From Escherichia phage vB_EcoP_EP32B, in sequence record OR544955: a DNA stretch of 64,000 nucleotides, one strand, 5' to 3'. The position numbers and the translations under genes were made by a program. Below the pieces are notes generated by a model that saw only the letters and a program-made list of their open reading frames with translations, was not told where the DNA came from and did no database searches. Positions 2,327 to 18,291 of this stretch are shown one piece after another. The stretch's first letter is position 1; the number at the start of each line of letters is the position of its first letter.

Positions 2327-2642
2327 TATTAAACCGGTTGATGAGGCCGGTTTATCTGAACAAGAATTAGCAGTAAAACACGATAAAGATGATATCGCTA
2401 AATTGCTTGACCGTCAAGAAAACGGATTCATTATCGAATCCATGGTTGAACAATTTGGTATGTCTTATTTAGAAGCAACAACTGCTTTCTTGGAAGAAAA
2501 TTCTATTCCAGAAACACAATTTGCTAAATTTATTCCTACAGGAATTGTTGAAAAAATTACAAGCGAAGCAATTGACGAAAACATGCTTCGCCCATCAGTT
2601 GCTCGTGGTGAAAAAACTAATACGCTAGATTTCTTATTATGA
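2304..2642 (+). CDS. 33: Late transcription co-activator gp33
   Basis: 112 aa, identical length to T4 gp33; synteny dsbA-33-59. Confidence 0.8.
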   Translation: MTQFSLSDIKPVDEAGLSEQELAVKHDKDDIAKLLDRQENGFIIESMVEQFGMSYLEATTAFLEENSIPETQFAKFIPTGIVEKITSEAIDENMLRPSVARGEKTNTLDFLL

Positions 2643-3292
2643 TTAAAATACGCATGCCTCCTGATGGAGAACGTTATATTAACGGAAAATCGGTATACAA
2701 ACTATACTTGATGTGCAAACAACATTTTAATGGTCGGTATGACGTAATCAAATATAACTGGTGCATGCGTGTTTCGGATAATGCGTATCAAAAACGCCGA
2801 GATAAATATTTCTTTGAAAAACTAGCAGAGAAATATAAATTGAAGGAACTCACCTTGATATTCATAAGCAACTTAGTTGCTAACCAAGACGCATGGATTG
2901 GTGAGATATCAGACGCTGATGCATTAGTTTTCTATAGGGAATATATTGGACGTCTCAAACAAGCTAAAGAGTCGTTTGCTGAAGATGTACGTAACATCTA
3001 CTATTTCAGTAAGAAAGTTGAAGTTAGTGCGCTTCAAGAGATATTTGATTATAATAATAAAGTTCAGTCGAGCTACATATTTAAATTGCTACAAAGCAAT
3101 ATAATTTCGTTTGAAACTTTCTTATTGTTGGACTCATTTTTGAATATTATAGATAAGCACGACGAACTCACCGATAACTTAGTCTGGCAAAATTATTCTA
3201 CCAAATTAAAGGCATATCGAAAAATACTTCAAATCGATGGAAATGCTGCTAAGAAATTGTTCATAGAAACAATCAAATCATGTAAGTATTAA
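2639..3292 (+). CDS. 59: Helicase loader gp59
   Basis: 217 aa, identical length to T4 gp59; immediately upstream of gene 32. Confidence 0.85.
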   Translation: MIKIRMPPDGERYINGKSVYKLYLMCKQHFNGRYDVIKYNWCMRVSDNAYQKRRDKYFFEKLAEKYKLKELTLIFISNLVANQDAWIGEISDADALVFYREYIGRLKQAKESFAEDVRNIYYFSKKVEVSALQEIFDYNNKVQSSYIFKLLQSNIISFETFLLLDSFLNIIDKHDELTDNLVWQNYSTKLKAYRKILQIDGNAAKKLFIETIKSCKY

Positions 3293-3321
3293 GCTTTATT
3301 TTATCTGTGTTAGAATTACCG

Positions 3322-3329
3322 TATAAATA
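3322..3329 (+). promoter_or_regulatory. Late promoter (TATAAATA) upstream of gene 32
   Basis: Exact TATAAATA ~80 nt upstream of gene 32 start; T4 gene 32 is known to have late promoters. Confidence 0.6.
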
Positions 3330-3369
3330 AATCATACCAGCTACGAGGTATAAGTGTCGTAGCAACCAA

Positions 3370-3408
3370 CTGTAAATAAATTAAATAATCTAAATAAAGG
3401 TAAATATA
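3370..3408 (+). promoter_or_regulatory. A/U-rich leader resembling the gene 32 translational operator
   Basis: Leader ...AAATAAATTAAATAATCTAAATAAAGGTAAATATA-ATG: repeated UUAAA/UAAAU elements directly 5' of the start codon, as in the T4 gp32 autoregulatory site. Confidence 0.45.
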
Positions 3409-4029
3409 ATGTTTAAACGTAAATCTACTGCTGACCTCGCTGCTCAAATGGCTAAACTGAACGGTAACAAAGGTTTCTCTTCAGAAGATAAAGGCGAATG
3501 GAAGCTGAAACTCGACGCATCCGGTAATGGTCAAGCGGTAATTCGTTTCCTGCCGGCAAAAACAGATGACGCCATCTACACACGGCGATTATGACTCTTG
3601 TCCTGTATGTCAGTACATTAGTAAAAATGACCTGTACAATACCAACAAAAATGAATATTCTCAACTGAAACGTAAAACTTCTTATTGGGCTAATATTCTG
3701 GTTGTTAAAGACCCTCAAGCTCCAGATAACGAAGGTAAAGTATTCAAATACCGTTTTGGTAAAAAGATTTGGGACAAAATCAATGCAATGATTGCAGTTG
3801 ATACTGAAATGGGTGAAACTCCTGTTGATGTAACTTGGTTCTTGGTACTGCCGCTCTGGGCGGTGCAGCAGCTGCCGCAGCTTCTGTTGCAGATAAAGTT
3901 GCTTCTGACCTTGACGATTTTGATAAAGACATGGAAGCCTTTAGTTCTGCAAAAACTGAAGATGACTTCATGAGCTCTACCTCATCCTCTGATGATGGCG
4001 ACCTCGATGACCTGTTAGCTGGTCTATAA
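3409..4029 (+). pseudogene. 32: ssDNA-binding protein gene 32, interrupted by two frame-breaking lesions (about 621 bp versus ~906 bp expected)
   Basis: Frame 1 [36 protein letters not shown]...AVIRFLP matches T4 gp32 N-terminus then stops; frame 2 resumes at ...[21 protein letters not shown]...GETPVDVT (zinc-binding region); frame 1 again supplies the acidic C-terminus ...[12 protein letters not shown]. About 20 residues before THGDYD and most of the core after DVT are absent. Confidence 0.8.
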
Positions 4030-4035
4030 TAAATC

Positions 4036-4058
4036 GGGAGACTTCGGTCTCCCTTTTG
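4036..4058 (+). terminator. Intrinsic terminator after gene 32
   Basis: Perfect hairpin GGGAGAC-TTCG-GTCTCCC followed by TTTTG. Confidence 0.8.
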
Positions 4059-4084
4059 AGTATCTGTAAATTGCCAAAAAAGTT

Positions 4085-4114
4085 GTTTACTTCTTCCCTG
4101 GATGTATTAGTATA
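4085..4114 (+). promoter_or_regulatory. T4-type early promoter
   Basis: GTTTAC at 4085-4090, -10-like TATTAG/TAGTAT ~17 nt downstream. Confidence 0.5.
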
Positions 4115-4142
4115 GACATATCAACAACATGAGGAAATCAAA

Positions 4143-4535
4143 ATGGAAATCGGAAAATCTTATATCATTAACCCTTTATTTAAAGACGACTTTGTTCAAG
4201 AAGCACCACATAATAACGCTAAGATGTTAAAACTGATTGAACTCCATGGGCCTAGTTTTGTTGTAAACGGAATGGAACCTGATTATGATAGCGATACGTC
4301 AAACGTAGTAAGTGTAACTATGGAAGATGGTACTGTATGTTCTGCCGGTGGTGAAATTGAAACTTATTTTGAGATTTATCCTGACGAGTTCAAATACTTT
4401 ACTGAGGTAGATTTAGTAAAACCTCAACCTACTAACGAAGGTATAACTTTAGGTGTAACAAAAATCCATTGTATCGTAGATGAAACCAACGTCGACGAAA
4501 TCATCAAACTTTTGCAAAAAACTTTTAAAAAGTAG
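4143..4535 (+). CDS. Hypothetical early protein (frd.x position)
   Basis: 130-aa ORF on the sense strand of the early array; early promoter at 4085-4114. Confidence 0.5.
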   Translation: MEIGKSYIINPLFKDDFVQEAPHNNAKMLKLIELHGPSFVVNGMEPDYDSDTSNVVSVTMEDGTVCSAGGEIETYFEIYPDEFKYFTEVDLVKPQPTNEGITLGVTKIHCIVDETNVDEIIKLLQKTFKK

Positions 4536-4598
4536 TGTATAACAAGATAGGGCTATGTTATAGTAGTCCTATCAAATAAAAGTGAAGAGGAGAATAAA

Positions 4599-6196
<1,598 letters not shown>

Positions 6197-6451
6197 ATGA
6201 TTTTACGTTTTATTAATTCATATGGCACCACAATTTTTGAAATGAAAAATCCAAGTGAACTGGATATCCCTTCACCGAATAGTGAAATCACAGTTAAAGG
6301 TGAACGATTCATTTGCTATTCACACGAACGAATTTATGAATATCGTGAATTTTGTGGTGGTTACGGTATAGAAAAAGAACCGTTGGTTTATTTCGATATC
6401 ACAGTCTTGACACCTAAAGAATACGAAGAAATTATTGCTGAGGATAATTAA
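6197..6451 (+). CDS. Hypothetical early protein (nrdA.x position)
   Basis: 84-aa ORF between td and nrdA on the sense strand. Confidence 0.5.
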   Translation: MILRFINSYGTTIFEMKNPSELDIPSPNSEITVKGERFICYSHERIYEYREFCGGYGIEKEPLVYFDITVLTPKEYEEIIAEDN

Positions 6452-6538
6452 CGCTTCAGTTTAAAAGTGTATAATAAATTAACGGGATAAATACTATCCC
6501 GTTTGGAGTAATGTCTATCAACCTATACCGAGGACTAT

Positions 6539-8794
6539 ATGCAAGTAACTAAGAGCAGTGGTGTATCCCAAAATTTTGATGCACAGAAAATTATTCAAGT
6601 CTTAACTTGGCAATGTGAAGGAACACAAATTGACCCATATGAATTGTACGAAGAAATTAAGACCCATCTTGTCGATGGGATGAGCACCAAAGATATTCAG
6701 AAGATTTGTATTAAAGTTGCGGCTAACTCGATTTCTGTCGAAGAACCTGATTATCAGTATGTCGCCGCTAAAGGATTAATGTTTGCACTTCGTAAAGATG
6801 TATACGGACAGTTTGAACCACCTGCTTTTATCGACCATATTTCTTACTGTGTTAATGAAGGCAAATACGACCCCGAGCTGTTGTCTCAATATTCAGCAGA
6901 AGAAATCATTTATCTTGATTCTCGGATTAAACACGAACGAGATTTTGACCTGACTTATGCTGGTGCTATGCAGCTTAAAGAAAAATATCTAGTTAAAGAT
7001 AAAACAACTGGGAAGATTTATGAAACTCCACAGTTTGCTATCATGGCTATTGGCATGGCCTTACATCAAGACGAAACTCGTGACCGTTTGAAACATATTA
7101 TTCGTTTTTATGATGCCGTTTCTACTCATCAAGTTTCATTGCCTACCCCAATTATGGCAGGTGCTCGTACTCCGACTCGCCAGTTCTCTAGTTGTGTAGT
7201 TATTGAAGCCGGTGATTCGTTAAAATCTATTAACAAAACTTCAGCATCAATTATTGAATATATTTCTAAACGAGCTGGTATTGGTATCAACGTTGGTATG
7301 CTTCGTGCAGAAGGTTCTAAGATCGGTATGGGTGAAGTTCGACATACGGGTGTTATTCCATTCTGGAAACATTTCCAAACTGCAGTAAAATCTTGTTCTC
7401 AAGGTGGTATTCGTGGTGGTGCTGCTACAGCGTATTATCCGATGTGGCACTTAGAAGTAGAGAACCTATTAGTTCTGAAAAATAACAAAGGCGTGGATGA
7501 AAACCGTATTCGACATATGGACTACGGAATTCAGATTAATGACCTTATGATGGAACGCCTTGGTAAAAATGATTATATTACTTTATTTAGCCCTCACGAA
7601 ATGTCAGGCGAACTATACTACTCGTTCTTTGAAGATCAAGATAAATTCCGTGAGCTTTATGAGAAAGCTGAAAAAGACCCGACAATCAGAAAGAAAAGAA
7701 TCAAAGCACTAGAACTCTTTGAATTGTTCATGACTGAACGTTCTGGCACTGCTCGAATTTATCCACAATTCGTTGATAACACGAATAACTACACTCCGTT
7801 TATTCGTGAAAAAGCTCCAATTCGTCAGAGTAACTTATGTTGTGAAATCGCTATTCCGACTAATGATGTGAATGGCCCTGATGCTGAAATTGGTTTATGC
7901 ACATTATCTGCTTTTGTATTAGATAAATTTGATTGGCAAGACCAAGATAAAATTAATGAACTTGCTGAAGTACAAGTACGTGCACTTGATAACCTGTTAG
8001 ACTATCAAGATTATCCGGTTCCAGAAGCTTTAAAAGCCAAAAAGCGTCGAAACCTCGGTGTCGGTGTGACGAACTATGCCGCATGGTTAGCTTCTAACTT
8101 TGCTTCATATGAAGACGCTAACGATTTGACTCATGAATTGTTTGAGAGATTGCAATATGGCCTTATCAAAGCTTCAATCAAACTCGCCAAAGAAAAAGGA
8201 CCTTGCGAGTATTATTCAGACACTAAATGGTCTCGAGGCGAATTACCTATCGACTGGTACAATAAAAAGATTGACCAAATCGCAGCCCCGAACTACGTCT
8301 GTGACTGGGAAGAACTTCGAGCTGAACTCAAAGAACATGGAATTCGTAACTCAACATTGTCTGCACTTATGCCATGTGAATCAAGCAGCCAGGTTTCTAA
8401 CTCTACAAACGGGATTGAACCGCCGCGTGGTCCAGTAAGTATTAAAGAATCTAAAGAAGGCAACTTCCGTCAGGTTGTTCCTAATATAGAACATAACATG
8501 AGTCTTTACGACTACGCGTGGAAACTTGCTAAGAAAGGTAATAAACCTTATTTGACCCAAGTTGCTATCATGTTGAAATGGGTGTGCCAATCTGCTTCTG
8601 CTAATACTTACTATGACCCTGCGGTATTTGAGAAAGGTAAAGTACCAATGTCAGTAATGCTTGACGATCTACTTTACTTCTGGTACTTTGGTGGAAAAAA
8701 TCTCTACTATCATAACACTCGTGATGGGTCAGGTACAGATGACTATGAATTAGAAACACCTAAAGCTGAAGATTGTTCTGCTTGTAAGCTTTAA
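6539..8794 (+). CDS. nrdA: Ribonucleoside-diphosphate reductase large subunit
   Basis: 751 aa (T4 754); RNR active-site region ...RQSNLCCEIAIP... and C-terminal Cys pair (CSACKL). Confidence 0.93.
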   Translation: MQVTKSSGVSQNFDAQKIIQVLTWQCEGTQIDPYELYEEIKTHLVDGMSTKDIQKICIKVAANSISVEEPDYQYVAAKGLMFALRKDVYGQFEPPAFIDHISYCVNEGKYDPELLSQYSAEEIIYLDSRIKHERDFDLTYAGAMQLKEKYLVKDKTTGKIYETPQFAIMAIGMALHQDETRDRLKHIIRFYDAVSTHQVSLPTPIMAGARTPTRQFSSCVVIEAGDSLKSINKTSASIIEYISKRAGIGINVGMLRAEGSKIGMGEVRHTGVIPFWKHFQTAVKSCSQGGIRGGAATAYYPMWHLEVENLLVLKNNKGVDENRIRHMDYGIQINDLMMERLGKNDYITLFSPHEMSGELYYSFFEDQDKFRELYEKAEKDPTIRKKRIKALELFELFMTERSGTARIYPQFVDNTNNYTPFIREKAPIRQSNLCCEIAIPTNDVNGPDAEIGLCTLSAFVLDKFDWQDQDKINELAEVQVRALDNLLDYQDYPVPEALKAKKRRNLGVGVTNYAAWLASNFASYEDANDLTHELFERLQYGLIKASIKLAKEKGPCEYYSDTKWSRGELPIDWYNKKIDQIAAPNYVCDWEELRAELKEHGIRNSTLSALMPCESSSQVSNSTNGIEPPRGPVSIKESKEGNFRQVVPNIEHNMSLYDYAWKLAKKGNKPYLTQVAIMLKWVCQSASANTYYDPAVFEKGKVPMSVMLDDLLYFWYFGGKNLYYHNTRDGSGTDDYELETPKAEDCSACKL

Positions 8795-8847
8795 GACTTT
8801 TTATTATAATTTACTCATGGATGAGTTAAACTAAGTGAGAAAATATA

Positions 8848-9944
8848 ATGAGTACAGTTTTTAACACACAACAAGTCGATGTTTTGAATGAACCGATGTT
8901 CTTTGGTTCTGGTCTTGGTATTGCGCGTTATGATATTCAACGACATAAAGTTTTTGAAGAACTTATAGAAAAATCCTTGTCGTTTTTTTGGCGCCCAGAA
9001 GAGGTAAACTTGATGTTGGACTCTGCGCAGTTCAATAAGCTTCCTCAGTTCCAACAAGACATCTTTACAAACAATCTTAAGTATCAATCATTATTAGATT
9101 CTATCCAAGGCAGGGCCCCATCTGCGGTACTTATGGCACTGATTTCTGACCCTTCATTAGATACGTGGGTTGCAACATGGACATTCAGTGAAACTATTCA
9201 CTCTCGTTCGTATACTCATATTATGCGAAATCTTTATACCGATCCATCCAAAGTATTTGATGAGATTGTATTAGACGAAGCAATCATGAAACGAGCTGAA
9301 TCAATAGGTAAATATTACGATGATGTTCTAGACAAGACTCGTCGTTGGGAAAATGCAAGCGTGATTTAATGAAGTCTCTTTATCTCTGTTTGCATGTAAT
9401 TAACGCCTTGGAAGCTATTCGTTTTTACGTATCATTTGCATGTACTTTCAACTTCCATAAAAACATGGAAATTATGGAAGGTAATGCAAAGATTATGAAG
9501 TTCATTGCTCGTGACGAACAACTCCACCTCAAGGGTACTCAGTACATTATCCGTCAACTTCAATCTGGTACTGATGGTGATGAGTGGGTTCAAATTGCTA
9601 AAGAATGTGAACAGGAAGCAGTTGACATTTTTATGGAAGTAAATAGACAAGAGAAGGAATGGGCTGCACATCTCTTTAAAGACGGTACATGCCCGGGTAT
9701 CAATACACAGAGTATGTGTGCTTTTGTTGATTACTTGACTGTGTCTCGTATGAAACAGTGTGGTTTGCCATGTCCAATTACTGATGCTCCGACCAAGCAT
9801 CCGTATCCTTGGATTCGTGAATATCTGAACTCTGATTTAGTTCAAGCAGCTCCTCAGGAAGTTGAAATCAGTTCTTATCTTGTCGCACAAATTGATAATG
9901 ATGTAGACCAAAATGTAATCAATTCATACAAAAAATATTTCTAA
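8848..9944 (+). pseudogene. nrdB: Ribonucleotide reductase small subunit gene, intronless, frame-shifted near 9345-9370
   Basis: ORF 8848..9369 (173 aa, ...TWTFSETIHSRSYTHI...) and ORF 9345..9944 (LYLCLHVINALEAIRFYVSFAC...EGNAKIMKFIARDEQLHL...) together cover R2 iron-centre motifs but lie in different frames. Confidence 0.85.
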
Positions 9945-9948
9945 GGAC

Positions 9949-9970
9949 GGGACTTCGGTCCCACTTTATT
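9949..9970 (+). terminator. Intrinsic terminator after nrdB
   Basis: GGGAC-TTCG-GTCCC hairpin followed by T-rich run. Confidence 0.65.
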
Positions 9971-10381
9971 ATGAAAGATATTGCCGCCGAATATTCCTTT
10001 ATTAAATATACAGAATTGGAGCTATTAGAAGATGCAACAATTAAAACAGTTGATGTCCCTAATAAGAAAAATGTCATATACGCTATTGCTATAGATGACG
10101 AACTTGTGTATATTGGTAAAACCAAGAATTTAAAGAAACGCATTAACTATTATCGAACAGCCATAAATCGAAAAGACCAGACTTCAGATTCAAGAAAATC
10201 ACTTATGATTTTGGATGCCTTAATGCAAGGCAAAAAGGTTGAATTCTGGGCCCGCCAATGTTTTGACCTTTCAGTCACCAACGAACTTGGTTCAATGACC
10301 ATCGCAACAATGGACCTTGAAGAACCGCTTTTTATCAAAAAGTTCAACCCGCCTTGGAATATCCAACATAAGAAAAAGTAG
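9971..10381 (+). CDS. denA: Endonuclease II (GIY-YIG family)
   Basis: 136 aa, same as T4 EndoII; GIY-YIG-like motif VIYAIAIDDELVYIGKTKNLKKRINYY; synteny nrdB-denA-rnlA. Confidence 0.8.
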   Translation: MKDIAAEYSFIKYTELELLEDATIKTVDVPNKKNVIYAIAIDDELVYIGKTKNLKKRINYYRTAINRKDQTSDSRKSLMILDALMQGKKVEFWARQCFDLSVTNELGSMTIATMDLEEPLFIKKFNPPWNIQHKKK

Positions 10382-10410
10382 TTTACATACCACAAGGATT
10401 GTGGTACAAT
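10381..10410 (+). promoter_or_regulatory. T4-type early promoter upstream of rnlA
   Basis: GTTTAC 10381-10386, TGGTACAAT extended -10 at 10402-10410. Confidence 0.6.
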
Positions 10411-10427
10411 TTAAAAAAACTAACTGA

Positions 10428-11561
<1,134 letters not shown>

Positions 11562-11563
11562 TG

Positions 11564-11593
11564 GTTTACAAACACCAAGGATGGTGTTACTAT
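11564..11593 (+). promoter_or_regulatory. T4-type early promoter
   Basis: GTTTAC 11564-11569; TGTTACTAT -10. Confidence 0.55.
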
Positions 11594-11623
11594 GGTTTTT
11601 ATCAATAACACGAGGAGAAAATT

Positions 11624-12124
11624 ATGAATATGCAATTGATTACTAACGATATGGTTGTGGCAGCATTTGGTGATTCTACAGATGGAATCCGGGTCTTTAA
11701 GAAAGGCCGTGCAGTTGGTTATCTTACGGACCTACGTACTACACTAGCCAAAAATGCTAAAAAGAAGTTAAAGCAAAAGGAATATTCAACACGTTACACT
11801 GAAGAGAAACGCGAAGCGATGCCGGAAGCAGTTAATGCCATGGTAGAATTTCTTCAAAACAATTTGACTAAATATGACGCTAATGTGTTCATTAATATTA
11901 GTCAACCAAACGTACATATCGCAGGTATAAAATTCTACATTATTTGCGACCCTCTTACCGACAAATTCAACCGTCTCGGAATCTCAAGTCCATATCATAC
12001 AGCAGAAGAGTTGTGTGTATTGTTTGAATCATACAAAATCCAGTGCGATGGTTTGAAAACCGTTCTTATCAATGGATTATCCCGAGATGAAATCATTGGG
12101 ATTATTAAAACATGCTTAAAGTAA
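11624..12124 (+). CDS. Hypothetical early protein at the position and size of T4 Alc
   Basis: 166 aa (T4 Alc 167 aa) directly after rnlA; identification by synteny and size only. Confidence 0.45.
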   Translation: MNMQLITNDMVVAAFGDSTDGIRVFKKGRAVGYLTDLRTTLAKNAKKKLKQKEYSTRYTEEKREAMPEAVNAMVEFLQNNLTKYDANVFINISQPNVHIAGIKFYIICDPLTDKFNRLGISSPYHTAEELCVLFESYKIQCDGLKTVLINGLSRDEIIGIIKTCLK

Positions 12125-12158
12125 ATCCAACAATAAAGTCGATTCGCTGAATACTGAA

Positions 12159-12410
12159 TTGGCTTCTGTTAAAGAGACTGCTAAAAACAATGCTAAAGTA
12201 TTAGACGACTTCAAGGTTCAATATCAGTCAATCGAAGAAATGACTTATAAGAACCGTGTTTTAGTTGACCAACTTAAGGCCGAAAATGAAAAGCTCCGTC
12301 AGGATTCGAAGAAGAAGAACGTGGTGGCAAGTAAACCGGGATTGGTCGAAAAACAAATCAACAGGTCCTTCGATTCCTTTGCAGAAGACCTCAGGAAGCT
12401 CTCAGAATGA
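12159..12410 (+). CDS. Hypothetical protein (pseT.x region)
   Basis: 83-aa ORF, charged/coiled-coil-like; start codon uncertain. Confidence 0.4.
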   Translation: MASVKETAKNNAKVLDDFKVQYQSIEEMTYKNRVLVDQLKAENEKLRQDSKKKNVVASKPGLVEKQINRSFDSFAEDLRKLSE

Positions 12411-12697
12411 TTAAATTAATCGCAGTTGTATTATCTATTGGCATTTTGGCTGGATGTGCCCAGGATGTGCCCTTAAGCCCTAAAGAAACTTTACATCCGC
12501 CATGGCCTGAATCTATTGTTGAATATAACCAGAAATGGCAAGTAAAGGTTATTGATGGTAATCCGTGGGTTGGAATGCCATTTGAAGACTCTCAAGAATT
12601 TCGTATCTGGTTAAACGACGTAAAAAGATATGTACATGACCAGAAGACTATGTTATGTTATTATCGTAGTGGTTTAAAAGAGGAAAAATGCCAATGA
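12407..12697 (+). CDS. Putative lipoprotein (signal peptide with LAGC lipobox)
   Basis: N-terminus MIKLIAVVLSIGILAGCAQD: hydrophobic core followed by L-A-G-C. Confidence 0.5.
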   Translation: MIKLIAVVLSIGILAGCAQDVPLSPKETLHPPWPESIVEYNQKWQVKVIDGNPWVGMPFEDSQEFRIWLNDVKRYVHDQKTMLCYYRSGLKEEKCQ

Positions 12698-12912
12698 CTA
12701 AAGAACAGCATGAACACATTAAAGGGCTTATCTATGAATCTGAAATGGCGGCTATGATTTATGGGCGCCAGATTCAACGATTAGAATCTTTGCCTCCGAC
12801 TAATGACCGATTGTTAGTTCAGTCTCGTGCTAATCTGAAAAATGAATATCAGAATAAGTGGGCAGTAGCGACTAAAGCTCTTCACGAGTATATTGAATCT
12901 TTAGTAAAATAG
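12688..12912 (+). CDS. Hypothetical protein
   Basis: 74-aa ORF overlapping the previous stop; sense strand of early array. Confidence 0.45.
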   Translation: MPMTKEQHEHIKGLIYESEMAAMIYGRQIQRLESLPPTNDRLLVQSRANLKNEYQNKWAVATKALHEYIESLVK

Positions 12913-12941
12913 TTTACAAACTCTCAGGAGCAGAGTATAAT
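12912..12941 (+). promoter_or_regulatory. T4-type early promoter
   Basis: GTTTAC 12912-12917; TATAAT 12936-12941. Confidence 0.65.
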
Positions 12942-12969
12942 GCTCCTATGGATAATTGAGGAAATCTAA

Positions 12970-13270
12970 ATGAAAACATTACTAGAGAATTACATCAAAC
13001 GGTCTGATGAGTATATTGATATCTGTCGTGGAACGTCGTCACTTGTCAATTATGACAAAGATGCGGCAAAGGCACTAGATGAAGCAGGTAAAGCTCTTCG
13101 TAAAGCTGCTAAAGAAAAAGGGTTGGATTTGCAACAACTCAAAAGTCATATGATTAAATTTATTTCTTCAAACGTTAGAAGTACGTCAATTAATAAAAAC
13201 GTTGCTGAAATTAATAAAGACCGGCGCGAGCATAACATTCGTATTCTTGAAATTTTCTTAGGAATAAATA

Positions 13271-13293
<23 letters not shown>
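12970..13293 (+). CDS. Hypothetical protein
   Basis: 107-aa ORF downstream of early promoter 12912-12941. Confidence 0.5.
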
Positions 13294-14357
<1,064 letters not shown>

Positions 14358-14358
<1 letters not shown>

Positions 14359-14549
14359 TGAAACGATTATATGAAGTGATTGAGGTCATCGAACAGCATA
14401 AAGAATATTTGTTTGTAGTATGGCCTTTAGTAAATGGACGGTTCGGTATTGATGTGCTGGACTATGAACATGAAGAATGGTTGGACGGCGGTATATTTGA
14501 TAACGTCGACCAGGCAATTGAATGGTTAAATGAAAACTATGTACGATAA
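14358..14549 (+). CDS. Hypothetical protein (cd.x region)
   Basis: 63-aa ORF, start overlaps pseT stop. Confidence 0.45.
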
Positions 14550-14754
14550 ACATCATGAAATCGAAGATGAAGCATACAAAATGCTTCGTAAACTAGTGGG
14601 ACTTAATATGAGTCCTACATTAATCAACAAACTCGCAGGAATTCGTAATGATCTGAATACTCGTTACAAAGGCGAATATCATGTAGAGTTTGTTCCTGTA
14701 GGTGAACCGACCGAGCGATTTGTTGTTCGAGTTAAAGTAAATACTGTACACTGA
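14530..14754 (+). CDS. Hypothetical protein (cd.x region)
   Basis: 74-aa ORF in sense array. Confidence 0.45.
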   Translation: MKTMYDKHHEIEDEAYKMLRKLVGLNMSPTLINKLAGIRNDLNTRYKGEYHVEFVPVGEPTERFVVRVKVNTVH

Positions 14755-14761
14755 GGTAATT

Positions 14762-15037
14762 ATGTTCCCAACTTATTCTGAAATTGTAAAGGTAGTCTTC
14801 AGTCAGATTATTGCTAATAATATGTTTGAAGTGCTTGATAATGCAGCCGAACTCAGAGTTCATGCTCAACTAACTCATGTACTCAATGCTTTGCTCCCAG
14901 ACCAAGTAGATTCTATTGCTATTACTCTTCTCCCTGGGTCTGCACACGTCATCGTGGTATTTGATCTTGACGGCGATTTAGTTATCCAGTGCGATATCAA
15001 TTTCGGTACACAAAAAATTGAATGCAAAGCAATTTAA
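14762..15037 (+). CDS. Hypothetical protein (cd.x region)
   Basis: 91-aa ORF in sense array. Confidence 0.45.
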   Translation: MFPTYSEIVKVVFSQIIANNMFEVLDNAAELRVHAQLTHVLNALLPDQVDSIAITLLPGSAHVIVVFDLDGDLVIQCDINFGTQKIECKAI

Positions 15038-15039
15038 TG

Positions 15040-15069
15040 GTTTACAACATGGTAGAGTTGTGATACTAT
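15040..15069 (+). promoter_or_regulatory. T4-type early promoter
   Basis: GTTTAC 15040-15045; TGATACTAT -10. Confidence 0.6.
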
Positions 15070-15098
15070 AACTCTACCAACACAATGAGGAAACAGGA

Positions 15099-15335
15099 AT
15101 GCTAAGTGAAAACCCAATTACAGTGCACGAATTTCAGATTAAAGTAAAAGAATTTGCTCAAGCACTCATAAATAAAGTGTCTGAACGTTTCAAGGATGCA
15201 ACATTACGAGTTATTCAAGAATCTCCACGTTCTTTTCTCATAATTGTTAATCCTAAAGATGGCGACCAAATTACTAATCTTAAATTAGGCAGTGATGGTC
15301 TTGTTGAAGCAACTCGAGTATATGGAACACTATAA
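15099..15335 (+). CDS. Hypothetical protein (cd.x region)
   Basis: 78-aa ORF after early promoter 15040-15069 with GAGGA RBS. Confidence 0.5.
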   Translation: MLSENPITVHEFQIKVKEFAQALINKVSERFKDATLRVIQESPRSFLIIVNPKDGDQITNLKLGSDGLVEATRVYGTL

Positions 15336-15455
15336 TGAGAGCTATCTCATTACTATCGAGAATGGTCATAAATCTGAGCACTACCAACTTAGCCTGTCTA
15401 ATCCGGTTAAAGGTATTGTTGAATCAGAATCTGTTTATATCTCCTAAGGATTGTT

Positions 15456-16448
15456 ATGTTACCTGTCGTCGGAAAACTTATTTCTCCAAAAGAACTGGCT
15501 GAGATTATTCCTTTGTCGGAAGCTTACGCATCACAAGTGGCTTCTCATCGCGAACAAGTTAATTCGATTATGAACGGTGAAGACCCACGCAAACTTATTG
15601 TTGTAGGTCCTTGTTCAATTCATGACCCTATTGCTGCTGTTGAATACGGCAAACGTCTGGCTGAACTTCAAACTCGTCTTCCTAATGTTCTGTTAGTGAT
15701 GCGCGTTTATTTTGAAAAGCCTCGAACTACCGTAGGTTGGAAAGGTCTTGTAAATGATCCATATCTTGACGGAAGTTTTGATATGAACCACGGTCTTATA
15801 GTTGCACGAACATTGTGTCGTAAACTTCTACGTATGGGACTTCCATTAGCAACTGAAGTATTAGACCCATTCACGATTAAGTATCTTTCTGGTATTTTCT
15901 CATGGGTTGCTATTGGCGCCCGTACGACTGAAAGTCAGACACATCGTGAAATTGCTTCAGGTCTACCGATGTGCGTAGGCTTCAAGAACGCAACCAATGG
16001 TTCTATTAAAGTAGCTACAGACGCGATGTATAGTGCCGCCTGGCCTCATCGGTATATGGGTATGGACGTCGATGGTACTGTAGGCATTGTTGAAGCTGAA
16101 GGTAATCAGAATACGCATATCGTATTGCGTGGCGGGACCAACGGCCCGAACTATCATTCTTCTGATATTCAAGAAGCTTCTAACAAAGCAAGGGCAGTAG
16201 GTCTGAATCATTATGTAATGGTTGACTGTAGCCATGCAAACGCTGATGGACATTATAGCAATCAAATTGGTATTGGTAAAAATTTAGCAGCTAATGATTT
16301 GGTCAAAGGAATTATGATAGAATCATTCCTACATGAAGGAAATCAAAAAATTTCTGATAATATGTCCTATGGCGTTTCCATTACCGATGCGTGCATCAGT
16401 TGGGAACAAACTAAAGAGCTGTTAACTTATATTAATAAGGTTCAATAA
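15456..16448 (+). CDS. 3-deoxy-D-arabino-heptulosonate-7-phosphate (DAHP) synthase, class I (AroF/AroG-like)
   Basis: 330 aa with motifs VVGPCSIHD, MRVYFEKPRTTVGWKG, AIGARTTESQTHRE, PMCVGFKN, MVDCSHAN, IMIESFLHEGNQ, YGVSITDACISWE; colinear with E. coli AroF/AroG along the whole length. Confidence 0.9.
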   Translation: MLPVVGKLISPKELAEIIPLSEAYASQVASHREQVNSIMNGEDPRKLIVVGPCSIHDPIAAVEYGKRLAELQTRLPNVLLVMRVYFEKPRTTVGWKGLVNDPYLDGSFDMNHGLIVARTLCRKLLRMGLPLATEVLDPFTIKYLSGIFSWVAIGARTTESQTHREIASGLPMCVGFKNATNGSIKVATDAMYSAAWPHRYMGMDVDGTVGIVEAEGNQNTHIVLRGGTNGPNYHSSDIQEASNKARAVGLNHYVMVDCSHANADGHYSNQIGIGKNLAANDLVKGIMIESFLHEGNQKISDNMSYGVSITDACISWEQTKELLTYINKVQ

Positions 16449-17029
16449 TGAAAGCTAGCACATACCTTCAGATTGCATATCTGATTTCTCAAGAATCAAA
16501 ATGTTGTTCATGGAAAGTTGGCGCAGTCATTGAAAAAGATGGGCGCATTATCTCTACTGGGTATAACGGTAGCCCGGCCGGTGGTGTTAACTGTTGTGAA
16601 CATGCATCTGAAAATGGTTGGTTGAAGAATAAACCAATCCCAGTCATCGTTGCTGGGCATAAAGAAGGCACTACAGCATTTGGACGGGCCGATAATTTTG
16701 TTTTGGCTAAAGAACATCGGGCTGCTCATAGTGCATGGTCTGCCAATAACGAAATCCATGCGGAACTGAATGCAATTTTGTTTGCAGCTCGTAAAGGTAA
16801 TTCTATTGAAGGTGCTACGTTGTATACGACACTTTCTCCATGTCCTGATTGCACTAAAGCTATTACACAGTCAGGTATTAAAAAGGTTGTATATGCAGAA
16901 TTATATGACCGATCTCCTGAAAATTGGGCAGACATTCTTAAACAAGCTGGTATTGAAGTAATTCAGTACTCTCGTAATAATCTTCGTTCTCTGAATTGGG
17001 AACAAATCCGAAACTTTTGTGGTGAATAA
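16448..17029 (+). CDS. cd: dCMP deaminase
   Basis: 193 aa (same as T4 Cd); zinc-ligand motifs HAELNAI and SPCPDC; start overlaps DAHP synthase stop. Confidence 0.9.
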   Translation: MKASTYLQIAYLISQESKCCSWKVGAVIEKDGRIISTGYNGSPAGGVNCCEHASENGWLKNKPIPVIVAGHKEGTTAFGRADNFVLAKEHRAAHSAWSANNEIHAELNAILFAARKGNSIEGATLYTTLSPCPDCTKAITQSGIKKVVYAELYDRSPENWADILKQAGIEVIQYSRNNLRSLNWEQIRNFCGE

Positions 17030-17327
17030 TATGATTTTAACTGAACAAGAAACTATGGTTCTTCGTGAACGTATTAAAACTATTCTGTCTGTAGGCGTTC
17101 ATTGTGTTGTATTTGAAAAGGCTAACGGTGATGTTCGTACGATGTTTGCCTCCCGTGATGAACTTGAAGTCAAATACGAAAATAACAATCCGGCAACAGA
17201 AGTTCGTTATGAACCTCGTGAATCAGTTCGAGCATTCGATACCAAGTTAGGCCAGTGGCGTTCTTTCCGCCTTGATAAAGTAATTTCGGTTGATGGTACT
17301 CCGGTAGAACGTTTGCTTCTTATGTAA
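17019..17327 (+). CDS. Hypothetical protein (31.x position)
   Basis: 102-aa ORF between cd and gene 31. Confidence 0.45.
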   Translation: MVNNMILTEQETMVLRERIKTILSVGVHCVVFEKANGDVRTMFASRDELEVKYENNNPATEVRYEPRESVRAFDTKLGQWRSFRLDKVISVDGTPVERLLLM

Positions 17328-17356
17328 TATGCTTTACGAATAGTATGGTATTATTA
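17327..17356 (+). promoter_or_regulatory. MotA-dependent middle promoter upstream of gene 31
   Basis: MotA box ATATGCTTTAC (TGCTTTA at 17330-17336) 12 nt upstream of TATTAT -10. Confidence 0.55.
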
Positions 17357-17384
17357 ATCTATCGTCAAACAACAAGGAAATAAG

Positions 17385-17717
17385 ATGTCTGAAGTACAAC
17401 TCCCAATTCGTGCTGTTGGTGAATATGTTATTCTGGTTTCTGAACCCGCTCAAGCAGGTGATGAAGAAGTTACCGAATCAGGTCTTGTGATTGGTAAACG
17501 TGTTCAAGGTGAAGTTCCTGAACTATGTGTAGTTCATTCTGTAGGTCCTGATGTTCCTGAAGGTTTTGTTGAAGTCGGTGATTTGACTCCACTACCAGTT
17601 GGACAAATTCGAAATGTTCCACATCCATTTGTGGCTTTGGGACTTAAACAACCTAAAGAAATTAAACAGAAATTCGTAACATGCCACTATAAAGCTATTC
17701 CGTGTCTTTATAAGTGA
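17385..17717 (+). CDS. 31: Head-assembly co-chaperonin (GroES analogue) gp31
   Basis: 110 aa (T4 gp31 111 aa); N-terminus [21 protein letters not shown]; MotA-type middle promoter upstream. Confidence 0.85.
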
Positions 17718-17841
17718 TATAAATAACTATATGAAGAGAACACTCTTCTAAGCGGTAGCCTACAACTGAGAGACTTGTCGAAAGAAGGTGAAATTCAGAC
17801 GAACGTGGCTACTAAATATTATCTCGAATTGAGAATTTAAA

Positions 17842-18000
17842 ATGATTAAACAATTACAACACGCTCTTGAACTGCAACGAAACGCATGGAATAACGGTCA
17901 CGAAAACTACGGCGCGTCGATTGATGTTGAAGCCGAAGCTCTGGAAATCCTCTATCACGCGTCAGAAAAAGGTTATCTGTCTAAGTCGTGGTTGGCATGA
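17842..18000 (+). CDS. Small hypothetical protein (52 aa) at the position of rIII
   Basis: ATG at 17842, product MIKQLQHALELQRNAWNNGHENYGASIDVEAEALEILYHASEKGYLSKSWLA; below the 60-aa track cutoff; assignment by synteny only. Confidence 0.35.
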   Translation: MIKQLQHALELQRNAWNNGHENYGASIDVEAEALEILYHASEKGYLSKSWLA

Positions 18001-18111
18001 TGACGGGTTTATGGTTATCCTGTCGTTAAATATCCAAAACCTATGTTCCCCTTGAGGGCTTGAGCAGGCAATGTCAATAAGTCCTGCATTTTCATTTAAA
18101 GAGAATTTATA

Positions 18112-18291
18112 ATGGCAAAACAAGCTAAAGCAAAGAAAGCAGTTGAAAAGAAAGTTGATGGTACCTCTAAACGCGCTGGATACAAGCGTGGGTCGAACTC
18201 TCGTATTAATCAAACAGTTGAGAAGATCATGCGCAGAGCACGTGCAGTTCTTCGAGATGATGCTTCTCGTTTTGGAAAGGTTGTTGCATAA
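18112..18291 (+). CDS. Small basic hypothetical protein (59 aa)
   Basis: ATG at 18112, product MAKQAKAKKAVEKKVDGTSKRAGYKRGS...; followed by hairpin terminator 18297-18319; below track cutoff. Confidence 0.4.
   Translation: MAKQAKAKKAVEKKVDGTSKRAGYKRGSNSRINQTVEKIMRRARAVLRDDASRFGKVVA

Follow-up and report, generated by a model that had tools for sequence, protein, structure and literature searches.

Marine cyanophages are the source of most auxiliary metabolic genes documented so far. In T4-like phages of enterobacteria, annotations of a gene for DAHP (3-deoxy-D-arabinoheptulosonate 7-phosphate) synthase date back to about 2014, and PHROGs lists the gene. The copy in Kanagawavirus KLB31 was flagged as an auxiliary metabolic gene in a passing remark (PMC11845039), and in phiC120 the domain was listed (PMC8022965). 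Among the closest known relatives of its product are the Escherichia coli isozymes AroF, AroG, and AroH. In the full-text literature, we found no functional study of a phage DAHP synthase, just annotation, passing remarks, and one-sentence hypotheses. Here we analyzed the DAHP synthase gene in a 64,000-nucleotide stretch of Escherichia phage vB_EcoP_EP32B (sequence record OR544955), hereafter the window, which belongs to a Mosigvirus, an RB69-like T-even coliphage. The gene occupies positions 15456..16448 of the + strand, on which all features below are placed unless stated otherwise, and lies between cd.2 and cd.

Our results favor the explanation that this is an auxiliary gene of a phage lineage, probably encoding a competent and feedback-insensitive DAHP synthase that would keep the aromatic supply up during infection. 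If true, the enzyme would clearly exemplify how a virulent phage of enterobacteria takes over the committed step of aromatic biosynthesis. To our knowledge, the rebuilt regulatory site of the enzyme and the scar left by import of the gene as a cassette are the only new points of this report.

Family assignment and catalytic residues

The open reading frame (ORF) is uninterrupted, starts with ATG, and encodes 330 amino acids. In a profile search, the window protein matched Pfam DAHP_synth_1 (PF00793; E = 4e-75, 252.6 bits versus a cutoff of 25.5) and exceeded the cutoffs of the NCBIfam aroFGH equivalog TIGR00034 (427.9 versus 173.2 bits) and of NF009395 (455.3 versus 343 bits), which establishes its family membership. 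The scores for the NCBIfam AroG and AroH equivalog models were below cutoff (363 versus 568 and 387 versus 463, respectively). The top match among solved structures was E. coli AroF (PDB 6agm, E = 7e-105), the fold being settled by known structures with ~50% identity, and phrog_5045 was matched over its full length (E = 2.8e-182). Together with the alignment described below, these matches identify a type I-alpha DAHP synthase, as a preliminary description made from the DNA letters had proposed when it called the product a 330-residue class I enzyme. The four motifs quoted there (GPCSIHD, VDCSHAN, IESFLHEGNQ, and ITDACISWE) are all found in the protein. The KPRT motif separates DAHP synthases from 3-deoxy-D-manno-octulosonate 8-phosphate (KDO8P) synthases. 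Because the window protein has this motif and scores at equivalog level, a KDO8P-synthase-like or other activity was ruled out.

We aligned the window protein with its homologues from Marfavirus F48, Winklervirus X20, Bragavirus PM2, and Kanagawavirus PEi26 and Entb_45, and with AroG, AroF, and AroH of E. coli MG1655. The four metal ligands are present (C53, H260, E289, and D311, equivalent to AroG C61, H268, E302, and D326). The residues that bind the substrates phosphoenolpyruvate (PEP) and erythrose-4-phosphate (E4P) are all kept as well (R83, K88-P89-R90-T91, G154-A155-R156, K177, and R225; in AroG R92, K97-P98-R99-T100, G163-A164-R165, K186, and R234). Both sets are invariant in six phage lineages that share merely 56–77% overall identity, which bears out the earlier statement that the catalytic residues are intact. 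In a column survey of 30 phage-clade and 98 bacterial sequences, 91 alignment columns were at least 95% conserved with the identical residue in the two groups. This conservation is strong indirect support for catalytic competence, and the phage enzyme is most likely active.

A rebuilt inhibitor site and a shortened N-terminus

In E. coli AroG, the substitutions P150L, S180F, and F209A/S confer feedback resistance, Q151 (AroF Q152) and S180 (AroF S181) touch the main chain of the bound inhibitor, and D155 stabilizes the inhibitor site (PMC9529685). We compared the phage and bacterial groups of the column survey and called a column diagnostic when a residue was at least 90% fixed in the phage clade and present in at most 10% of the bacterial homologues. 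Fourteen columns were diagnostic, ten of which fall in the AroG segments 144–160, 180, and 209–223 that make up the inhibitor site. These are, with the bacterial frequencies in brackets, F144 (41% F), replaced by V in phages; P150 (90% P) by I; Q151 (100% Q) by K; D155 (98% D) by G; L156 (79% L) by I; M157 (I in 54%) by F; G160 (S in 57%) by V; S180 (98% S) by P; F209 (100% F) by Y; and T223 (100% T) by A. In the alignment with the E. coli enzymes, the position of AroG A202 is a serine in the phage protein.

The N-terminus is also altered. All 30 phage proteins have 46–50 residues ahead of the GPC motif, and all 98 bacterial proteins have at least 56, such that the phage clade lacks the first 6–10 or more residues relative to every sampled bacterial homologue. 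In the window protein, Cys53 aligns with AroG C61, AroF C62, and AroH C60, and its N-terminus is thus 7–9 residues shorter than those of the E. coli enzymes, in agreement with the roughly nine residues noticed earlier. The absent segment includes AroG D6/D7, which contribute to binding of the inhibitor from the neighboring subunit. The features by which a feedback-regulated isozyme would be recognized (AroG P150, Q151, S180, F209, and the N-terminal D6/D7 arm) were replaced or absent in 30 of 30 phage proteins. The combination of inhibitor-site substitutions and a short N-terminus throughout the phage clade supports feedback insensitivity, and strengthens what had previously been suggested from the shortened N-terminus. 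The phage enzyme most likely escapes inhibition by Phe, Tyr, and Trp.

Two features of the site run counter to a plain loss of regulation. First, the phage enzyme has Gly at the position of AroG S211, as does the Tyr-sensitive AroF, and some residual sensitivity to Tyr is therefore possible. Second, the replaced residues are invariant among phage lineages and thus conserved but different rather than decayed, a pattern that is better explained by selection on the site, possibly for a structural role or another ligand, than by simple loss. The phage residues I141, K142, G146, P171, Y200, and A214 are 97–100% conserved across lineages that differ at 23–44% of positions, LGLPLATEVLDPFTIKYL(S/T)GIFSWVAIGARTTESQTHREIASGLPM is the most conserved segment of the phage DAHP synthases, and the Gln-to-Lys change (AroG Q151K) puts an extra positive charge in the pocket. 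Such a site is compatible with a constitutive enzyme locked in the open state, or with a pocket that now serves another ligand. In the latter case, the enzyme would still be allosteric, answering a ligand relevant to infection in place of Phe, Tyr, or Trp. We consider this unlikely, since residues that, once the N-terminal arm was lost, simply lock the active conformation or stabilize the dimer interface would look alike, no data point to a ligand, and the sequence permits reasoning about one subunit only. If true, a virus would have re-wired a textbook allosteric enzyme in nature, and an infection-specific signal would govern entry into the shikimate pathway.

Distribution and phage origin of the gene

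The window protein is 100% identical to the annotated protein of Mosigvirus PhAPEC2. In megablast searches, 145 phage records matched the gene, 139 of them (Mosigvirus) with at least 95% identity across 80% or more of the gene. With tblastn, the gene was found in 212 phage records, including T4-like phages of Klebsiella, Serratia, Erwinia, Proteus, Edwardsiella, and Enterobacter at 58–77% identity. The comparison with DAHP_synth_1 and T-even genomes that had been proposed as a check thus upheld the family assignment and revealed a widespread gene. T4 itself lacks it.

Several lines of evidence place the gene in a phage lineage. In a neighbor-joining tree, the phage proteins formed one clade, separate from the sampled bacterial homologues and from AroF, AroG, and AroH, and the nearest bacterial proteins were at most 55% identical and came from scattered phyla. 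The GC content of the gene (41.1%; 29% at third codon positions, GC3) was like that of adjoining phage genes, while E. coli aro genes have 52–53% (GC3 50–57%). Across phages, the GC content of the gene tracks the local phage GC, with 41% in the window, 32.5% in Proteus phage PM2, and 45% in Klebsiella phage F48. Recent capture from the host was ruled out by the ~50% identity to AroF/G/H, the monophyly of the phage clade, and the phage-like GC. Judged by these sequence features, the gene is a long-standing phage resident. A phage profile match and residence in a phage genome, with pseT, cd.2, cd, and gene 31 as flanks, qualify it as an auxiliary metabolic gene, and its PHROG carries the category 'moron, auxiliary metabolic gene and host takeover'.

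The gene could alternatively be a neutral passenger hitch-hiking in a hyperplastic region, or an artefact of assembly or host DNA. The pseT-to-cd region is indeed variable among T-even phages, the gene is dispensable, and the window has unexplained deletions elsewhere. Against both versions, all catalytic residues are kept across lineages down to 56% identity, the GC is phage-like, and the gene recurs at one location in 139 independent Mosigvirus records as well as in five further genera. The block 12129–17951, which holds the gene, is intact and colinear with public genomes. Overall, this explanation is highly improbable, and its artefact version is effectively refuted. The same place in 139 near-identical Mosigvirus records and the phage-like GC also exclude contamination and chimeric assembly, the concern raised in the preliminary description.

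Distant DAHP synthase genes (35–38% identity) were also observed outside the T4-like clade, in the 79-kb Aeromonas phage HJ05 (OQ594355.1) and in small human-gut phage contigs (MT837410.1 and MT838377.1). These copies are possibly independent acquisitions.

Import of the gene into Mosigvirus as a cassette

The Mosigvirus JK36 has flanks ~96% identical to those of the window and lacks the gene; its cd.2 stop directly overlaps the cd ATG. In the window, the intact cd.2 (15099..15335; Mosigvirus type, DUF7320, delimited by a family profile match and by comparison with JK36) is followed by a 120-nucleotide spacer, one frame of which reads SYLITIENGHKSEHYQLSLSNPVKGIVESESVYIS and then a stop. Positions 15340..15447 of this spacer are the remnant 3' half of a second cd.2 of Kanagawavirus/Marfavirus type, with 51% identity to residues 45–81 of the Entb_45 cd.2 (E = 1e-7). 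The likeness is also plain in the DNA, including a TAAGG that combines stop codon and ribosome-binding site. Because a whole Mosigvirus cd.2 is followed by the tail of a foreign cd.2 and then by the DAHP synthase gene, the spacer remnant is the recombination scar of a cassette import. At the left junction, the start of cd (ATGAAAGCTAGCACAT) has a short similarity to the donor cd.2 (GAGAGCTATCTCAT), and the crossover may have been guided by this similarity.

Comparison with phage p000v delimits a low-divergence cassette at 15324..16521, which comprises the cd.2 remnant, the DAHP synthase gene, and the first ~74 nucleotides of cd. Over ~1.2 kb, 6 differences to p000v were counted (0.5%), while both flanks differ by ~6%. 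Among three Mosigvirus species, the spacer is 100% identical, and the synonymous divergence of the synthase gene (0.013–0.027) is about 10-fold below that of the flanking genes cd (0.19–0.25) and cd.2 (0.10–0.21). The cassette is therefore much younger than its surroundings. It occurs in ~139 of roughly 152 Mosigvirus-like records, or about nine in ten. That so young a cassette is this frequent on diverged backgrounds points to a recent spread, which selection may have driven. Mosigvirus would have gained it from a Kanagawavirus-like T-even phage. Since the nearest sampled relative outside Mosigvirus is merely 77% identical, the direct donor is unsampled.

Gene neighborhood and predicted transcription

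Upstream of the gene lie pseT (polynucleotide kinase) and small cd.x homologues; downstream, after the dCMP (deoxycytidine monophosphate) deaminase gene cd (16448..17029), lie genes for a 31.1-like WYL_2 protein and the GroES-like gp31. In T2, the position between cd.2 and cd is held by cd.1. The placement between cd.2 and cd is kept in Mosigvirus, Kanagawavirus, Marfavirus, and a basal metagenomic T4-like contig (P0020, 57% identity). In Serratia phage X20 (Winklervirus) and Proteus phage PM2 (Bragavirus), the gene is separated from cd by one or two small ORFs, among them a cd.1 homologue. The most basal member of the phage clade (P0022, on metagenomic contig L017 at 2517–3515) has no adjacent cd and is flanked by a zeta-toxin-like kinase gene upstream and a T4 Y05Q-family gene downstream, and the link to cd is therefore not universal.

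Translational coupling to cd had been proposed earlier. The TAA stop (16446–16448) does share its last A with the cd ATG (16448–16450) in the sequence TAATG, and co-transcription of the two genes is supported. This overlap, however, is ordinary T4 gene packing. In PhAPEC2, 13 of the 28 neighboring pairs annotated from rnh to gene 31 overlap in this way, and because of this and of the ORFs interposed in X20 and PM2, the overlap is uninformative about a functional tie.

The gene is preceded by a Shine-Dalgarno sequence, AAGGA (15446..15450), 5 nucleotides ahead of the ATG and overlapping the TAA stop of the remnant, as in Kanagawaviruses. By consensus match, the best upstream candidate promoter is an early-type, sigma-70-like site at 12913..12941 (TTTACA-17-TATAAT, 11 of 12 positions); a weaker sigma-70-like site lies at 15041–15069, and a middle-promoter-like MotA box with a -10 element lies within pseT at 14051..14075. 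The late-promoter motif TATAAATA was not found on the + strand from 3322 to 17718, nor was any + strand terminator match found in 12800–18200. A dedicated promoter in the 120-nucleotide spacer was rejected, as no match was found there and the spacer is a gene remnant. These observations suggest that transcription is pre-replicative, together with pseT, cd, and gene 31.

Nearby, cd.3 (DUF7355; 14762–15037, compared with L013 1405–1680) has two very different alleles among Mosigvirus species. The window, phi25-307, and JK36 have one allele in common, and p000v differs from it (71% nucleotide identity, synonymous divergence ~1.9), with adjoining genes being 94–99% identical. This pattern is a local allele replacement, typical of T-even mosaicism.

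Predicted role during infection

Under the favored explanation, the gene would be transcribed ahead of replication as part of a pseT-cd-31 unit, given the early and middle promoter matches and the lack of late-motif and terminator matches. Its product would condense PEP and E4P to DAHP and so catalyze the committed step by which carbon enters the shikimate pathway. Having lost the N-terminal residues and exchanged those that bind the inhibitor, it would escape inhibition by Phe, Tyr, and Trp. Carbon could thereby be kept flowing to the host AroB-to-AroC enzymes while the host DAHP synthases are feedback-inhibited, repressed, or not renewed, and chorismate and the aromatic amino acids would be maintained for phage protein synthesis.

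Further points weigh against this explanation. The gene is accessory, as closely related viable phages are without it; RB69-type Mosigviruses do well in its absence, and any benefit must therefore be conditional. The promoters are consensus matches, and sigma-70 site matches occur at chance frequency. Selection within Mosigvirus can hardly be read from the ratio of non-synonymous to synonymous rates, which ranges from 0.06 to 0.69 with 6–12 changes (1–7 non-synonymous versus 3–6 synonymous), too few for an estimate. Finally, no enzymology, expression data, or knockout phenotype for the phage gene was found in the literature. Natural gene-plus (PhAPEC2, HY126) and gene-minus (RB69, JK36) Mosigviruses make the question directly testable.

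A different purpose, already put forward in the preliminary description, would be folate supply: the enzyme would raise chorismate and hence p-aminobenzoate and folate for Frd, Td, and dCMP hydroxymethylase in DNA synthesis. The genes frd and td share genome and strand with the synthase gene, and from pathway knowledge, a feedback-insensitive DAHP synthase would feed chorismate to non-amino-acid products even in aromatic-rich medium. In the basal metagenomic T4-like contig, frd and td lie just ~4 kb upstream of the gene. In the window, however, frd (4769–5356) and td (5353–6196) are not operon neighbors of the gene but lie about 9–10 kb upstream. The intervening stretch holds nrdA, nrdB, denA, rnlA, alc, the spanin genes, and pseT, and in PhAPEC2 a terminator is annotated following nrdB. 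Moreover, td is frameshifted by a 17-nucleotide deletion relative to PhAPEC2, which removes the codons for the conserved LQWYQRS and splits the gene into two ORFs (5353–5871 and 5840–6196). The Mosigvirus ThyA homologue has been reported in RB69 and HY126 to be a flavin- and O2-dependent 5-hydroxy-dCMP synthase (PMC13326640), and HY126 carries this DAHP synthase. Since Mosigviruses thus make 5-hydroxy-dCMP, not hydroxymethyl-dCMP, their cytosine modification proceeds without the folate-dependent hydroxymethylase (PMC13326640), and one of the two proposed folate sinks is gone. Folate is also recycled rather than consumed, T4 has a larger folate demand and yet lacks the gene, and the examined parts of the PhAPEC2 map contained no pab or fol biosynthesis gene. 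The folate and hydroxymethyl-dCMP rationale is therefore weak and lacks specific support, and we judge it improbable.

The enzyme could also act as a sink for E4P and PEP that re-routes the pentose phosphate pathway to ribulose-5-phosphate, for nucleotides and for the arabinose on 5-hydroxycytosine. The T4-like phages with a DAHP synthase are within the group that has the RB69-type sugar-nucleotide module between gene 43 and uvsX (PMC8056088), and arabinose has been proposed to derive from ribulose-5-phosphate (PMC13326640). The co-occurrence is, however, partial and confounded by shared ancestry. The arabinose-5-phosphate isomerase gene was found in 275 phage records, including RB69, JK36, 57 of Acinetobacter phages, and 6 of Yersinia phages (phiR1-RT among the carriers). 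RB69-type Mosigviruses and JK36 have the isomerase gene without the synthase, no Acinetobacter or Yersinia T4-like phage was among the phage-clade synthase matches, and Klebsiella phage F48 has the synthase and no isomerase gene at the expected position beside the DNA polymerase gene. The examined papers on the arabinosylation pathway do not mention a DAHP synthase gene, and draining E4P would be stoichiometrically wasteful. As the overlap with the sugar-nucleotide module follows phylogeny and is best explained by shared ancestry, a link to arabinosyl-5-hydroxycytosine was set aside and kept as a very unlikely alternative.

In F48, the region between the DNA polymerase gene and uvsX (L014, 17742–23409) holds an RB69-type module that includes a 554-amino-acid ORF placed as RB69 ORF52/53, along with a phosphatase bearing the annotation phosphoheptose isomerase, a thymidylate-kinase-like gene, a peptidase, and a homologue of ThyA. 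F48 may rely on the host KdsD or use another sugar.

Deletions elsewhere in the window

The window and NC_041863.1 (E. coli O157 typing phage 3) have their first base in common and are colinear and ~98% identical, yet the window lacks at least 10 segments of 17–321 nucleotides that are present in this reference. The deletion sites are 3572/3573, 3837/3838, 4761/4762, ~5865, ~9356, 12128/12129, 17951/17952, 20197/20198, 22124/22125, and 23289/23290. The deletions affect gene 32 (68 and 214 nucleotides), td (17 nucleotides), nrdB (~78 nucleotides), the DNA ligase gene (73 nucleotides), and the 3' end of rIII (247 nucleotides), and several are inside essential genes. Those in the gp32 region were common to no public record. 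Among eight deletions checked, none had microhomology at the junction and six were not multiples of three. The pattern looks like assembly damage or deliberate excision rather than a viable natural genome.

Comparison with known DAHP synthases

The phage enzyme has the type I-alpha fold family in common with E. coli AroF (PDB 6agm/6agl), AroG, and AroH, to which it is 50.8%, 47.4%, and 43.8% identical, respectively, and its metal ligands and PEP/E4P-binding residues are identical to theirs. It differs from them by P150I, Q151K, D155G, S180P, A202S, F209Y, and T223A (AroG numbering), by two short loop deletions towards the C-terminus, and by AT-rich codon usage. Its closest counterpart is the PhAPEC2 copy, the same protein at the same locus between cd.2 and cd. 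Engineered feedback-resistant enzymes, such as aroG-fbr (P150L, S180F, D146N) and AroF variants, are altered at the same inhibitor-site positions as the phage enzyme, and their expected effect is a deregulated entry of carbon into the shikimate pathway (PMC9529685). If deregulated, the phage enzyme would offer metabolic engineers a natural feedback-resistant DAHP synthase. Unlike the engineered variants, it is a natural protein, multiply substituted, N-terminally shortened, and fixed across an entire phage clade, features from which its insensitivity to feedback is predicted.

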